From: Bdellovibrionia bacterium
GTDB lineage: Bacteria; Bdellovibrionota; UBA1018
NCBI GenBank assembly: GCA_045805065.1
Contig: JBJMMA010000060.1
Coordinates: 1 to 64,000, forward strand
DNA length: 64,000 nucleotides
Direction: 5' to 3'
Numbering within the stretch: the first letter of the stretch is position 1; each line of letters opens with the position of its first letter. The notes under the pieces were generated by a model, which was not told the DNA's origin, searched no databases, and saw only the letters and a program-made list of their open reading frames with translations. Shown one piece after another: positions 38,688 through 44,346 of this stretch. The translations under genes were made by a program, and so were the position numbers.

Positions 38688-39992
38688 TTGACTGCACCTG
38701 CAACGAATTCTGCACCTAATAATAAACCTCGCCCTAGACGTCATCCGCGCGCTGCAGCGGTTCGAATTATCACGCGCGTCCTTGCGGATCGCGAACCCCT
38801 GGATGAAGCTCTTTCACGCGTTGTTGCTGAGCAGAACCTGGATTCCTCAGCACGCGCCTGGCTTCAGGATGTTTGCGCAGGAACGCTGCGCTGGCGCGGA
38901 AGGCTGGATCAGATTCTTGATGCAGCATCTTTCAAGAAGAAGCCAACGGGCTGGCTGAGAAAAGTTCTCATCGTCGCAATCTATCAGATTGTGGCTCAAG
39001 ATCGCGTCAACCCGGGTGCTGTGGTTTCTGAAACGGTCGTGGAAATTAAACGCAAGGAAGGCGAGGCGCCTTCTCGTTTTGCAAACGCTGTCCTGCGAAA
39101 GCTCAGTGAGCATGCGCAAGCAGTCAGAACTCAAGCGTTCCCAGAAGGTGCGCCAGCATCAGAGCAAGCGCTTTGGGCCAGTCTGCCGGATTGGATCTGG
39201 AATCGCCTGGTAGCGCAATATGGACTCGATTGGAGCCGTGCCTATGCTCAGGCTAGTCTTGAGCGTCCAACGGTCTGGATTCGCTCCAGAGAGCCTGATT
39301 TTCAAGCAAGCTGGGCTTCCGAAGCGGGATCCGTTCCAGGGTCCTTCCGCCTGACAGAAGGTGGATCCATTGTGGAGCGTCCTGGCTTTAAAGAAGGCAC
39401 TTTCTTTGTGCAAGACATCTCAAGCCAGGCCTTGATTGCTGAGATCAGCGCAGAAGTGCGAAAGGGCCTGGGCGAAGGTCCTCTAAAAGCTCTCGATCTT
39501 TGTGCCGCTCCAGGTGGAAAGACTGCAGGCCTTTCCTGGAATGGCTTTGAAGTGATCGCTACCGATCGCCCTGAAAAGGGTGGCTCTCGTTTTGCGCTTC
39601 TTGAGCAAACAGTTCAACGTGTGGCGCCAACTGCACGCGTGATTCAACGCGGACAAGTTGCGTCTCTGGAGCCGCTGGATCTGGTTTGGGTGGATTCGCC
39701 CTGCACGGGGTCTGGCATTCTAAGACGCCATCCGGATGTGCGCTGGCTCAGGCAGGAGCGCGAGCTTGCATCGCTTCAGGAAGTGCAGCACAAGCTTCTC
39801 AAGGAAGCTTGGGATAAGGTTCGGCCGGGGGGATATCTTGCGTACTCGGTCTGCTCCATTCTTAAAGAAGAAGGACCCGAGGCGCTTTCCCGTGCTCAGC
39901 TCGGTGGCACTTTCGTGCGCGAATGGCTTTTAACGCCGCAATCGCCTCCATCAGGAGATGGTTTTTACGCAGCTTTGATTCGCAAAGCCTGA
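38688..39992 (+). CDS. rsmB: RsmB/Sun family 16S rRNA m5C methyltransferase with NusB-like N-domain
   Basis: FANAVLR, VQD.SSQ, DLCAAPGGKT, D.PCTGSG..RRHPD, YSVCS. Confidence 0.85.
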   Translation: MTAPATNSAPNNKPRPRRHPRAAAVRIITRVLADREPLDEALSRVVAEQNLDSSARAWLQDVCAGTLRWRGRLDQILDAASFKKKPTGWLRKVLIVAIYQIVAQDRVNPGAVVSETVVEIKRKEGEAPSRFANAVLRKLSEHAQAVRTQAFPEGAPASEQALWASLPDWIWNRLVAQYGLDWSRAYAQASLERPTVWIRSREPDFQASWASEAGSVPGSFRLTEGGSIVERPGFKEGTFFVQDISSQALIAEISAEVRKGLGEGPLKALDLCAAPGGKTAGLSWNGFEVIATDRPEKGGSRFALLEQTVQRVAPTARVIQRGQVASLEPLDLVWVDSPCTGSGILRRHPDVRWLRQERELASLQEVQHKLLKEAWDKVRPGGYLAYSVCSILKEEGPEALSRAQLGGTFVREWLLTPQSPPSGDGFYAALIRKA

Positions 39993-40185
39993 GGCTTTTA
40001 AGCCTCTTTAGGGTTTGTGTGCGCTGCGGTTTCACAGTGAGTCAGCGTTTTGCAATCCCGCTTTTGGCGGAATCTTTGCAAGATGAAACAATACGCCTGT
40101 TTTCATGGGTCTCGGTGCAGCATGACTACTAGGGATAGTGTGAAGTGTAAGAATTGACTTCAGGTGCTGAGATGGCGCATTAAGT

Positions 40186-40514
40186 GCCCCGTGTCAAAAT
40201 GACTCTACTGCTCCGAAGTGGCTCTGGGAGCGGAAAGACACGGGTGGTCTTAATTGAGTTCCGTTGATTGACGCACATGGCGAAAAAGTTCTGTCATCTA
40301 GCGGACAAAGAATGATTCTGATGAGGTGCGGAGGTCAGCCGGCCGCTGGCACGCCGGCTGCAATAACCCCCGCCAGGACCACTGATTCGCGAGTGTGTTG
40401 CGGAACGTATGTTGAGGGGGCGGCAGAGGTCATCACAATAAACGGCTACTATTTTACTTTTCCCAAATTTACCCACCTTTCAGACCGGTGGCTCCCGAAA
40501 GGGAGCCACCTGGT
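40186..40514 (+). ncRNA. Candidate large structured ncRNA of unknown class
   Basis: Non-coding gap after TTGACT(40154)...CATTAA; several nested helices, a 7-bp pseudoknot and a closing GAAA-tetraloop hairpin, found by hand. Confidence 0.55.
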
Positions 40515-40524
40515 ATCCCATTCG

Positions 40525-40648
40525 AAAACCAAACAAGAATAGTTGATAAGATAAAAGACCTCGCTGCGACTTCCTGTCGCATTCCCATTCGGCATCCTGC
40601 CTGGGAACGACTCGGTTTTTATCTTATCGACTATTCTTGTTTGGTTTT
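40525..40648. repeat. Branched palindromic element, copy 1 (32-bp arms, 60-bp structured core)
   Basis: Arms 40525-40556/40617-40648 (one G-T); core TGCGAC-ttcct-GTCGCA and TTCCCA..GGC-atcct-GCC-TGGGAA. Confidence 0.88.
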
Positions 40649-40748
40649 GCGTGTGTTTGTCGGTGAGGGCATGTGTGCTCTGGTGGAGAACGGATTGTGC
40701 TCTATTAGGCTAGACAGATTGTCGGCAGGGGGATATTCGCTGCCGCAT

Positions 40749-41576
40749 ATGTCAGTTCTGGAGTTTGATAACTATCGGCTGTACTTGCGCTCCGTACTTG
40801 CTGATCGGGCATCGACAAATCCGAGGTACTCTCTTCGGGCATTCGCGAAGAGTCTCGAGCTGGCTCCCTCCTATTTATCGGCAGTCATGAATGGAAAGAA
40901 ATCACTTTCTCCTGAGACTGCTTACGCTGTAGCGGAGAAGCTCAGATTAGATGAACAAGAGGCAACGTATTTCCGCATCCTGGCTCAGATGGAAGCCACG
41001 AAAAATCCTGCTTTGAAAGAGAGCTTGCTTCAGCGAGCTCAGACTCTTGCCCCAAGTGTGGTTGTGAATGATCTCAGCGTTGATCAGTTCAAAATGATCT
41101 CTGACTGGCATCACTACGCCATATTTGCGGCGGTCGATCTCTCTGACATTGAGGCGACGCCAGAACGGATTGCAAAAATCCTTGGACTAAACCTTGCTGA
41201 AGTCCAAGTTGCCGTGGAGCGCATGATCCGATTGGAGATGCTCGAGAAGGACGCAGAAGGGCGCTTAAAACAAACGATCTCACATTCAAGGATTGTTTCG
41301 TTGGCGCCCAACAGGGCAGTGAGAAGCCATCACCGTCAGAACTTGGAAAAAGCGATCGAGAGTATCGGATTGCAGAGGCCGGATGAAAGATTCATGGGGT
41401 CTGAGACCTTTTGTATTGATGAATCACAATTTGAGGAGTTTCAGAAGCTCTGCAACCAGTTCCTCGACAGCGCGCTGGCTCTCGCGAAGAAAGCGAAGAC
41501 CAAAAACCAGGTGTACCACTTAGGTGTTCAGTTTTTCAGGTTTTCACAAGAAAAACCAAAGGAAGAAAAAAAATGA
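40749..41576 (+). CDS. TIGR02147/DUF4423 family HTH protein
   Basis: YR.YL......NPRYSLRAFAK.L...PS.LS.V..GKK.LS, F..ISDW.H.AI, HRQ.LEKA..S, VY.L.VQFF; real start ATG 40749. Confidence 0.88.
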   Translation: MSVLEFDNYRLYLRSVLADRASTNPRYSLRAFAKSLELAPSYLSAVMNGKKSLSPETAYAVAEKLRLDEQEATYFRILAQMEATKNPALKESLLQRAQTLAPSVVVNDLSVDQFKMISDWHHYAIFAAVDLSDIEATPERIAKILGLNLAEVQVAVERMIRLEMLEKDAEGRLKQTISHSRIVSLAPNRAVRSHHRQNLEKAIESIGLQRPDERFMGSETFCIDESQFEEFQKLCNQFLDSALALAKKAKTKNQVYHLGVQFFRFSQEKPKEEKK

Positions 41577-42547
41577 GAAGCATGCAATCAGGCTCAGTCC
41601 TTGTAAGTTTGACGTGCGGATTATCACTCATGTTTGCAATTAATGCGATGGCAGGTGGAGGGGGCGTACGCGGCGGCGGCGGCGATATCTGCGAAGATCG
41701 CATCCAGCAGATCCGGGATGATATCAAGTCCTGGATCCATCAAGGTGGCGCGCAGGGATTATCACTTCCGCAAGGAGTCTCCGCAGATCGGTATGCCGAC
41801 CTGATGCTAGATCAAATGAAAACCGCACGCGTGAAATGCGTCGGCGCGGCAGACAAAGGTTACCCGGTCGCGATCGGAAGCACGCCAAAGGTTTGCAAGT
41901 TCTCAATCGATCAATCGGGCTCTCAGATTACTTGTGACTACATCAAGTTTCTCGCGACTAACGAATCGGACCAATACGTTTTGATTCATCATGAGTACGC
42001 GGGGCTTGCGGGTGTCGAGGTCCCTAACCAGGGCGATTCCCGCTACGACGTTTCCAATCAGATCTCCGCCTATCTTGAAGACCAGGTTGTGAAGAAGCTT
42101 GCGGTAAAGCCCGTAACCTCCGAGCTCCAGGTGGGTTCGAGAGTTGTCATCGATGACAATCAATTTGAGACCAAAACCGGCCAGATTACTTCGATCACTT
42201 CCGGAAAGTACACCTATTATCAGGTCAGGCTATCCAATAACTCGGGTAGGGCGGGAGATGAGCAAATCATTGAGAGAAGTTACATCAAGGCGACCGAAGT
42301 CGGCAGTCTGAATGGCGTGAGAAAAGGTCAGAAAGCCATCTGCAGGAATATTTACGACATTTCCGGCAGCGCGTTTGAAGGCAACGTTGCTCATATTTAT
42401 TCAAACGGTTTCGTCGAAATCACTATTTCGACCAAGAAGGCCACTTCGGTTACGTCCACTTCTCAGTTATCTGAAGGACCCCTGTTTTTGTCGTCGGTCC
42501 CAGGCGCTTGGGAAATTCCTCGCTTTGGATACAACTGCTCTTATTAA
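41573..42547 (+). CDS. Secreted hypothetical protein (GG.RGGGGD.C N-motif, HHEYAGL motif, C-terminal beta repeats)
   Basis: Signal peptide (AMA|G); translationally coupled (ATGA) to the TIGR02147 gene. Confidence 0.8.
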   Translation: MRSMQSGSVLVSLTCGLSLMFAINAMAGGGGVRGGGGDICEDRIQQIRDDIKSWIHQGGAQGLSLPQGVSADRYADLMLDQMKTARVKCVGAADKGYPVAIGSTPKVCKFSIDQSGSQITCDYIKFLATNESDQYVLIHHEYAGLAGVEVPNQGDSRYDVSNQISAYLEDQVVKKLAVKPVTSELQVGSRVVIDDNQFETKTGQITSITSGKYTYYQVRLSNNSGRAGDEQIIERSYIKATEVGSLNGVRKGQKAICRNIYDISGSAFEGNVAHIYSNGFVEITISTKKATSVTSTSQLSEGPLFLSSVPGAWEIPRFGYNCSY

Positions 42548-42553
42548 AAATTA

Positions 42554-42683
42554 GAACAAAACAATACGAGTAAAGAACAAAGATAAAAGTCCTCGTTGTG
42601 ACATCCTGTCACATTCCCAGTCGTCTTCCTGACTGGGAACGACTCGGCTTTTATCTTTGTTCTTTACTCGTATTGTTTTGTTC
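42554..42683. repeat. Branched palindromic element, copy 2 (perfect 36-bp arms, homologous core)
   Basis: Arms 42554-42589/42648-42683; core TGTGAC-atcct-GTCACA and TTCCCA..GTC-ttcct-GAC-TGGGAA. Confidence 0.9.
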
Positions 42684-42738: not shown

Positions 42739-44346
42739 TTACTTCGATTTTTTCTTCACGCGAATGCCGCCGAATTTTCCGCCTGAAGGCTTACCTTCGT
42801 TACGGAAGCTTTTTGGCTTGCCGTAGCTTGGTTTGTCGCCAGATGCGGATCGGCCGCCAAACGCAGGCTTTTTGCCTCTCGGACGCTCATCGAAATCTTT
42901 TGGTGAAGCTTTTGGATAAGCTGCCTTAGCGGTGAAGGACTTTCCTCCGACAGGCTTCGTGCTTGGAGCGCTGGCTCCATCGGCCGAGCCACCGACTTGA
43001 AGAATATCTCCGCGCCAGACTGGGCCAAGATGGGCGGTGTTGATTCGTCCAGGGCGCTCGGGTTCGCAAATCAGAACATCACCGGCTTTTGTGAGCGGAT
43101 CACTGATGACGAGTTTGTGTGTTGGATTGCGCTTTGGAGAACGTTGATCGTTGGATGTGATCCAAAGGTAGGAGAACTTCAGCCACAGGCGCTCAGAGCC
43201 CAGAGCTTTTGAAAACTCTGCGAACCATCTGCCTGGAACGCGCGTTGGAACGGAGAAGTGGCAATAATCTTTTCCATAAGAAAGAGGGCAAGTCTCAGCG
43301 TGAGGGCAGGGGCCCCAGAGCATGGTTGCCGTTTTCTCGATCGTCTCGGTTTGGAAGAGACGGTTTCTTAAACGCGACAGAAACTGAGAAGTGGTTTTCG
43401 CTGCAGGCTCAACAAAGAGCACGCCGCCGCCTTGGGCTTTTTCAAGAAGGTTTGCCCAGATTGTTTCGATCTTTGGCTTCTTCGTTGTTTCGGCTTCAGT
43501 TTCTTCGCCGTCGTAATCTTCATTACCAACTGGACCCTCTCCGCTATCTAAAAGATCGAGTGGTTCTTCATCTTCACGAGCTTTAAAGCGGTTTGGAAGC
43601 GTTTTGGCTTCGTTCATGACATGGCCCAGAAGAATGAGCGACATCGGAGCTTTGAGCTGCGCGGGCGCATCCCACCAGTTTGCTGTCTGAAGATGAACAG
43701 TCACTTTGCCGCGAAGACGTGGGAACTGATCGGAGAGCGCTTGCACGAGCGCTTTTCCGTCTTCCATGATCGTGCGCTGAGTATCGAACCAATAAAGCTC
43801 GATCGGAGGAAAGTCTCCGCCGCGCGCCTGAAGAAGGCGCAATAGAAAACCAATCGATGCAGTGCCGGGGCCTGCGCCAAGATCCGCGATTCTTAAAACG
43901 CCCTGCTTGCGGCCATGCTCAAGCGCTGCTTGAACAGCGGCATTGTGCATTTCAAAAAGCGAGACGAACTTGGCCATTTGAAGAGGGAGGAAATAAAGAA
44001 GGTAAGCCGAGCGAAACTTCGGATGCTGAAAGTAGGCAGGAATCTGCTCGGGGCGCTCTTCGGTGAAAAGCTCAGAAAGATCTTTCACGCCTTTGGAGAA
44101 AAAGCGGACGTCCTCCTTGGCGAACGGTTTATCCTTCCAGCTATCGCGAGGGCTGTAGTGCTCTTTCACGTAGGCTGGAACCATTTCGTCCACAAACCAG
44201 GTCCAGGCGGGGGGGAAATCCAGCTGAGGAGATGCCAGTTTTATGACGCTCAACGGGCGATCACTCGACTGGTTTGAGGTTGGACGGGGGGATATCGGCT
44301 TAGGCAGGGGGGTTTTTGATCGCATGGTGTATCTTACTTGTCGCAT
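42739..44346 (-). CDS. Rsm22/METTL17-like methyltransferase
   Basis: AYLLYF, DLGAGPGTA, VEP, PCPH...CP......CHF, KFSYL; basic low-complexity tail. Confidence 0.8.
   Translation of the reverse strand: MRQVRYTMRSKTPLPKPISPRPTSNQSSDRPLSVIKLASPQLDFPPAWTWFVDEMVPAYVKEHYSPRDSWKDKPFAKEDVRFFSKGVKDLSELFTEERPEQIPAYFQHPKFRSAYLLYFLPLQMAKFVSLFEMHNAAVQAALEHGRKQGVLRIADLGAGPGTASIGFLLRLLQARGGDFPPIELYWFDTQRTIMEDGKALVQALSDQFPRLRGKVTVHLQTANWWDAPAQLKAPMSLILLGHVMNEAKTLPNRFKAREDEEPLDLLDSGEGPVGNEDYDGEETEAETTKKPKIETIWANLLEKAQGGGVLFVEPAAKTTSQFLSRLRNRLFQTETIEKTATMLWGPCPHAETCPLSYGKDYCHFSVPTRVPGRWFAEFSKALGSERLWLKFSYLWITSNDQRSPKRNPTHKLVISDPLTKAGDVLICEPERPGRINTAHLGPVWRGDILQVGGSADGASAPSTKPVGGKSFTAKAAYPKASPKDFDERPRGKKPAFGGRSASGDKPSYGKPKSFRNEGKPSGGKFGGIRVKKKSK

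Follow-up and report, generated by a model that had tools for sequence, protein, structure and literature searches.

The locus and its conserved part

The window, that is the whole 64-kb stretch of DNA that was analysed and to whose positions all coordinates refer, carries rsmB at 38688-39992 (Pfam RsmB/F and NusB), upstream of the region under study and on the same strand. The next gene downstream on that strand, at 40749-41576, encodes an HTH protein of the TIGR02147/DUF4423 type (164.5 bits to TIGR02147). A 324-aa open reading frame at 41573-42547 overlaps the stop of this gene and has no Pfam or NCBIfam match. An Rsm22-like gene lies beyond both on the minus strand (42739-44346). The window opens with a partial 23S rRNA gene (its 3' part, 1-729), followed by a gene for 5S rRNA (999-1115), and LSU (23S) and 5S rRNA are the only matches to Rfam 15 at gathering level in the whole window.

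A dispersed repeat of about 78 nt is present at 40548-40625 and again at 42580-42657. These two copies, both in plus orientation, flank the TIGR02147/DUF4423 gene together with the 324-aa frame, between the predicted small RNA gene described below and the Rsm22-like gene. The copy at 40548-40625 has 33 further matches in the genome, including an inverted self-match at 40525-40648 that extends it to a longer palindrome, and a few matches in the genome of the same genus, and it carries a terminator-like hairpin followed by a T-run at 40601-40615. The repeat looks like a MITE/REP-type element and possibly marks an inserted cassette. Since relatives lack it at this locus, it is not part of the RNA family.

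A sequence-only reading had proposed that the region between rsmB and the TIGR02147 gene encodes one large pseudoknotted RNA of about 330 nt, at 40154-40514. We compared positions 40100-40700 with 61 related genomes by blastn. The genome of the same genus used for comparison, G001, matches 40121-40522 at 83% identity, and 11 genomes from other genera of the family match solely within about 40337-40522, with 70-84% identity. Beyond the genus, conservation is restricted to 40343-40522. The same boundary is seen between the window and G001, which are identical at 145 of 203 positions upstream of 40343 and at 168 of 181 positions from 40343 onward. We consider it probable that the flagged region consists of a conserved sigma-54 promoter followed by a small RNA gene of about 150 nt, and is not a single large knotted RNA. 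The features on which this reading is built are listed below.

40191-40205, no strand: imperfect inverted repeat GTGTCAAAATGACTC, candidate protein-binding site, identical in G001 where the flanks diverge
40219-40233, no strand: palindrome TGGCTCTGGGAGCGG, candidate enhancer site, related to CCGCT-N5-AGCGG, about 128 nt upstream of the -24 element
40347-40362, plus strand: sigma-54 promoter TGGCACGCCGGCTGCA, TGGCAC-N5-CTGCA, with GG at 40348-40349 and GC at 40360-40361
40373-40522, plus strand: predicted small RNA of about 150 nt, with a putative start 12 nt past the C of the -12 GC and an end past the terminator hairpin
40377-40390, plus strand: 5' strand of P1, comprising P1a (40377-40384, GACCACTG) and P1b (40387-40390)
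40400-40411, plus strand: apical box GCGGAACGTATG, with GCGGnACGUA conserved
40416-40420, plus strand: conserved G-run GGGGG
40420-40435, plus strand: 3' strand of P1, comprising P1b (40420-40423) and P1a (40424-40431, CAGAGGTC), then the conserved AUCA
40436-40471, plus strand: A/U-rich linker, probably single-stranded, whose sequence and length vary
40472-40477, plus strand: CCYRCC box (CCCACC), with C130, C134 and C135 conserved in at least 90% of 56 sequences
40485-40513, plus strand: terminator hairpin CCGGTGGCTCCC-GAAA-GGGAGCCACCTGG, conserved and covarying
40548-40625 and 42580-42657, no strand: dispersed repeat (about 78 nt) bounded by 10-nt terminal inverted repeats

The Rfam 15 covariance models, including those for tmRNA, RNase P, 6S, riboswitches and ribozymes, gave no match at E<=10 on either strand of 39950-40750. 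The proposal of a stand-alone, structured non-coding RNA on the plus strand that belongs to no known Rfam class is retained, with a different extent. The RNA is predicted to span about 150 nt, at about 40373-40522, instead of about 330 nt.

Sigma-54 promoter and upstream DNA

The conserved part was aligned across 56 homologues, 55 of them distinct (alignment A3). The alignment begins with the promoter, in which T5, G6, G7 and C8 as well as G18 are invariant, and A9, T17, C19 and A20 are conserved in at least 90% of the sequences, with a free spacer. The GG-N10-GC spacing is fixed across all 56 homologues, and the alignment consensus TGGCAC-N5-(C/T)TGCA corresponds to the -24/-12 consensus of sigma-54 promoters. 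The pattern TGGCAYN5YTGCW occurs once in the 64-kb window, at the promoter itself; because 0.32 matches per window are expected by chance, the weight of the promoter call rests on its conservation. Nearly all sequences keep a constant distance of 16 nt between the -12 C and the beginning of P1. The genome has one rpoN (218 bits to PF04552) and 24 matches to PF00158, the AAA+ domain of sigma-54 activators, 17 of which are strong (E<1e-40).

The sequence-only reading had placed the transcription start after a TTGACT...CATTAA element at 40154. A scan of 39900-40800 returned no sigma-70 site, and the -10 part of that element differs in G001. Transcription would instead start after the conserved sigma-54 promoter.

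We read the palindromes and TGCA pairs upstream of the promoter as candidate activator-binding (enhancer) sites, a class to which the copies in the window are putatively assigned. What is kept upstream between the window and G001 is arranged in blocks resembling protein-binding sites, GTGTCAAAATGACTC and TGGCTCTGGGAGCGG. The GTGTCAAAATGACTC repeat forms part of what had been drawn as the P1 helix of the large RNA, and TGGCTCTGGGAGCGG includes its GGAGCGG arm. GTGTC/GTCAAA motifs resembling GTGTCAAAATGACTC are found upstream in several relatives. A strict motif count for such sites was weak (13/55, versus 2/51 and 0/50 in controls); its regular expressions were too narrow, and mismatch counting was used instead. 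With at most one mismatch, CCGCT-N5-AGCGG precedes TGGCA by 58-134 nt in 12 of 55 upstream regions and occurs in 0 of 51 and 1 of 50 controls. The TGGCTCTGGGAGCGG palindrome of the window has two mismatches to this motif, a level that is also found in control DNA. NtrC-like pairs, TGCA-N9-14-TGCA, are present in 18 of 55 upstream regions compared with 0 of 49 and 1 of 48 controls. Two TTGCAA hexamers 20 nt apart (TTGCAATCCCGCTTTTGGCGGAATCTTTGCAA) are located at 40051-40084, just past rsmB and about 290 nt upstream of the sigma-54 promoter; they resemble the TGCA pairs of the 18 relatives, in which the spacing is shorter. None of the 55 loci has an activator gene adjoining the RNA.

A similar arrangement was observed on contig C43 of genome G000 (L204, 5195-5800), where a sigma-54-like site (TGGCACACCTCCTGCT) is preceded, at a distance of 46 nt, by the perfect palindrome CCGCTACCAGAGCGG. 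This site precedes a small open reading frame with a PilZ domain (22.8 bits, barely above the cut-off), and TGCAA repeats farther upstream are similar to those preceding the small RNA. The sigma-54-like site of the PilZ homologues is kept in 12 of the 19 relatives examined. An activator common to the small RNA and the PilZ gene was considered and set aside: the combination of palindrome and sigma-54 site is shared within the genus alone, and other genera lack the palindrome.

Structure and covariation of the predicted RNA

The 5' parts of the homologues in A3, folded one by one, adopt a near-identical shape in which the bases past the predicted start pair with the bases before AUCA. In the window, this helix, P1, joins 40377-40384 to 40424-40431 (P1a) and 40387-40390 to 40420-40423 (P1b). 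The sequence of P1 varies and its complementarity is kept, as in the strand pairs GACCGUGUUCC/GGAGAACACGGUC, GACUGAGACCCUGC/GUAGGGUCCGGUC and GCGUCGAGGUGC/GCACCUCGCAC from different homologues. We performed an alignment-free test of this helix, in which strands from the same genome paired with -13.65 kcal/mol and strands combined across genomes with -8.97 kcal/mol; none of 10000 permutations was as good, and the same result (0/10000) was obtained when P1a and P1b were each tested alone.

Pair counting on A3 agrees with this test. Paired cells amount to 85.9%, compared with 77.8% in shuffles, and 20 of 25 pairs show changes on both sides, compared with 11.6 in shuffles. The covariation score is 0.339, compared with 0.201 in shuffles, and slid controls give a maximum of 0.153. 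None of 500 shuffles reaches the observed value of any of these measures. Changes on both sides are found in all eight pairs of P1a and in 10 of the 12 pairs of the terminator stem, where 92% of the cells are paired. One terminator pair is UA in 22 sequences, CG in 21 and UG in 12, a combination that fits the plus strand alone, since the U-G pairs would be C-A on the other strand; this fixes the strand. The preference of G-U pairs for the plus strand, noted earlier for the large RNA, holds for the two real helices.

Comparison with homologues bears out the terminal hairpin of the earlier fold and not its upstream helices, which are not maintained in G001. The terminal GAAA hairpin at 40485-40513 had been recognised correctly, and it is real and conserved. 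The proposed closing helix had the right 3' strand, CAGAGGTC at 40424-40431, and the wrong 5' partner, 40312-40320 in place of the covarying 40377-40384.

Several elements of the RNA are conserved in sequence as well as in structure, namely the apical box, the G-run and the terminator stem. Within the apical box and G-run, G58, G61, A63, C64, G65, T66 and G75 are present in at least 90% of the 56 sequences, and T91 and C92 of AUCA in 90-100%. A local hairpin around the apical ACGUA was tried and rejected, as several registers suit different sequences and none suits all. The linker is unpaired in the consensus fold, and the length from linker to hairpin ranges from 27 to 63 nt.

A GNRA tetraloop caps the terminator stem in most sequences, and one genus has UUCG there. 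In most relatives, the stem is followed after 3-5 nt by a U-run; the tail in the window (TATCCCATTCG) is U-poor. A simple scan of 39900-40800 returned two terminator-like sites, 39948-39961 after rsmB and 40601-40615, and did not call the hairpin at 40485-40513. Because the terminator of the window has no clear U-run, the 3' end may lie farther on here, for example at the terminator-like site 40601-40615.

Assembled contigs from sequencing runs cover parts of the region. In the RNA-seq run X20, a relative's contig of 317 nt, with 16 other letters and 13 gaps, covers 40282-40519; in X16, a run guessed to be RNA, a contig of 171 nt covers 40343-40510; and in the RNA-seq run X19, a contig covers 40436-40577. 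Such contigs do not give ends or strand and may contain DNA. One of them also spans the promoter and about 65 nt upstream of it, so these contigs cannot show a transcription start.

Two other accounts of the conserved stretch can be weighed against these data. One is the original model, a single pseudoknotted RNA of about 330-360 nt, ribozyme or riboswitch, transcribed from the sigma-70-like site near 40154. Every complementary segment listed for it is present in the window, with 7-9 of 8-9 positions pairing in each, the minimum-energy fold of 40154-40514 reproduces its P1 and its terminal hairpin, and G001 shares TTGACT and several upstream blocks unchanged. However, the predicted stability of these 361 nt is marginally above that of shuffles (-132.5 kcal/mol versus -118.5 +/- 6; z -2.34; 1 of 100 shuffles equal), and the opposite strand does equally well (-122 kcal/mol; z -2.23; 1 of 100 shuffles equal). 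By blastn, the 5' half is undetectable outside the genus. Across the eight helices that lie upstream or cross the promoter, 18 pairs are changed in G001, of which 14 are broken and four still pair (three of these as wobbles, after a change on one side only), and the arm GCGGAGGT is lost to a deletion of 10 nt. The crossing pair TGGTCTT/AGGACCA, on which the pseudoknot depended, loses a G-C pair in G001, and its 3' arm is actually the 5' strand of P1. In addition, the invariant sigma-54 promoter sits inside the proposed hairpin CAGCCGGC/GCCGGCTG, and nothing points to a ribozyme. The model is largely refuted, and we regard it as highly improbable. The idea that the conserved stretch is a gene for a small protein, on either strand, is even harder to sustain, and we give it almost no credence. 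Open frames do run across the region in the window (40264-40542 on the plus strand, 92 aa; 40294-40476 on the minus strand, 60 aa), and some frame of at least 55 codons is open in 37 of 56 homologues, but the open frame changes between genomes and none is conserved, the commonest anchored frame being open in 21 of 56 sequences. Neither the linker nor the 5' domain shows a bias towards lengths that are multiples of three, indels do not come in threes, the ATG of ACGTATG is not conserved, and the variation tracks base-pairing rather than codons.

The flagged RNA is real, but the wrong molecule had been drawn. The case is a caution on folding by hand: one half of the structure that had been proposed consists of promoter DNA and probable enhancer DNA, with palindromes that fold well on paper.

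Distribution, gene neighbourhood and possible role

We built a covariance model, R1, from 13 sequences, which scores 169 bits at the window locus. Within the family, 51 of the 75 genomes, among them 27 of the 38 of high quality, each have exactly one match to R1. Within the order, 43 of 86 genomes have a match: 36 of 53 in family f1, 5 of 7 in f2, 1 of 1 in f4, 0 of 15 in f10 and 0 of 10 in the other eight families. In an even sample of 151 genomes across the phylum, the full-length matches are eight, from f1 alone, and one extra match in another family covers the hairpin only. A scan of genome contigs with the loose pattern ACGT-N60-90-CCGCTGG-N10-20-CCAGYCGG returned 120 stretches, nearly all of them chance occurrences in G+C-rich genomes; among the 80 loci with DNA, a single one (L144) fits the model, and it is identical to L048, another locus. 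In the genomes searched, no order other than this one yielded the RNA.

The genes around the RNA vary. RsmB is encoded upstream in 26 of 55 loci and a divergent solute-binding protein gene in 12. The downstream gene differs in almost every genus; in 19 loci, a gene for an Rsm22-like methyltransferase converges on the RNA, with its stop codon at a distance of 0-80 nt from the hairpin. These data bear on the possibility that the next gene, here the TIGR02147/DUF4423 regulator, is controlled in cis by the sigma-54 transcript as its leader (an attenuator or riboswitch), as had been suggested for the large RNA. In the window, this gene is indeed next on the same strand and starts 230 nt past the hairpin (at 40749), and the weak U-run of the terminator would permit read-through. 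However, the TIGR02147 cluster follows the RNA in the window locus alone among the 55, and there the dispersed repeat with its own terminator-like site separates the two. Since downstream genes vary and are often convergent, we read the RNA as neither a leader nor a riboswitch, and a cis-acting role is very unlikely. A further alternative keeps the same gene and promoter and lets the RNA work via its fold, as a protein-binding or sequestering RNA that is possibly pseudoknotted between 40416-40420 and 40472-40477. This reading is unlikely, although it deserves clearly more weight than the leader. The terminator stem and GCGGnACGUA/GGGGG are conserved in sequence, neither Hfq nor ProQ was found, and a pseudoknot would result from the pairing of G-run and CCYRCC box given by RNAalifold; 84% of the cells of that helix can pair, and both elements are absent from three homologues of f2 (L071, L074, L076). 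Yet the sequences are compatible with this helix rather than covarying in it, as a change on both sides is seen in just one of the four pairs tested, and the joint loss of both elements is probably a single event in related genomes. CsrA is present in the genome, but the RNA has too few GGA for a CsrA sponge, and the gene neighbourhood of the 55 loci indicates no partner protein. The CCYRCC box is a possible pseudoknot partner of the G-run or a possible target-binding site. A more specific version, which we hold to be slightly less likely still, has the G-run in the internal loop of the 5' helix form the pseudoknot with CCYRCC, while a protein or small ligand recognises the invariant apical ACGU box and the terminator stem, giving a sigma-54-controlled sequestering or sensing RNA of one order, possibly tied to the activator of the PilZ gene. 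If this were true, the order would have a specific RNA possibly linked to the activator of the gene for a PilZ protein (a c-di-GMP receptor) with the same upstream palindrome.

We favour a small RNA that acts in trans. The comparisons across genomes establish that promoter, helix and terminator are conserved, that the gene is kept at a single copy per genome without dependence on a downstream gene, and that no reading frame is maintained. We propose that the sigma-54 promoter at 40347-40362 drives a gene that stands alone and encodes a small RNA of about 150 nt, at about 40373-40522 on the plus strand. Transcription would start near 40373 and depend on an activator, such that the RNA would be expressed solely once an enhancer-binding activator fires. 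Probable binding sites of this activator are the palindromes located 100-160 nt upstream, which had been folded as RNA helices in the sequence-only reading. The predicted transcript would present P1 with its apical box and G-run, followed by AUCA, an A/U-rich single strand, CCYRCC and the GNRA-capped terminator. It would act in trans upon a signal, and its conserved unpaired boxes would most likely pair with mRNAs, without Hfq. By analogy with the small RNA Pxr described below, a signal-induced, trans-acting regulator is the likeliest role; the terminator stem and the apical box, conserved in sequence to an unusual degree, would be equally compatible with protein binding and with pairing.

The host genome, which is 94% complete, has no match to Hfq (PF17209), and ProQ was not found in it either, so that the usual model of chaperone-assisted pairing cannot simply be assumed. 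Considered as an Hfq-dependent small RNA, the transcript would have the A/U-rich linker and, in the window, a weak U-tail, in a genome in which Hfq was not found. A role in sequestering CsrA/RsmA was rejected, as the RNA contains just two or three GGA and none in a conserved hairpin loop.

Small RNAs that depend on sigma-54 and an activator are known from other bacteria, and include Qrr1-5 of Vibrio, GlmY of enterobacteria, and CrcZ and NrsZ of Pseudomonas. They share a logic in which a -24/-12 promoter and an upstream activator site make the small RNA a signalling output that acts in trans. Qrr and NrsZ act with Hfq, CrcZ sequesters Hfq/Crc, and GlmY is a decoy for an adaptor protein. The new RNA resembles them in this promoter and activator logic, with activator dependence predicted here, and differs from Qrr, NrsZ and CrcZ in that Hfq was not found in its host. 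It has no sequence or Rfam similarity to any of them.

A closer parallel is Pxr of Myxococcus xanthus and other myxobacteria. As described in PMC5568312, Pxr is a stand-alone intergenic small RNA of about 100 nt with an apparent sigma-54 promoter and an enhancer-binding site upstream, has a predicted fold of several stem-loops with a terminator at the end, and is encoded next to the gene of its own activator, nla19. The two RNAs are alike in being stand-alone, in their sigma-54 promoter, in the upstream enhancer site (a candidate one here) and in the terminator (predicted in both). Their hosts are both soil bacteria of the former Deltaproteobacteria. They are unlike in that pxr adjoins nla19, whereas the new RNA has no adjacent activator gene in 55 loci. 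Their predicted architectures differ too, with three stem-loops in Pxr and one long 5' helix, a linker and a terminator in the new RNA. We read the RNA as a new family of a known type, the small RNA that depends on an activator and sigma-54, like Pxr.

A full-text literature search on small or noncoding RNA and sigma-54/RpoN in Bdellovibrio and Bdellovibrionota returned no paper describing an RNA regulator, and little is in print on the RNA regulators of Bdellovibrionota/Oligoflexia. The RNA described here occurs once per genome and is retained across an order whose members, relatives of Bdellovibrio, are mostly uncultured bacteria of soil. The invariant sigma-54 promoter identifies it as a signalling output, and the RNA therefore gives regulation in this group a concrete entry point, be it that of lifestyle or of stress responses.
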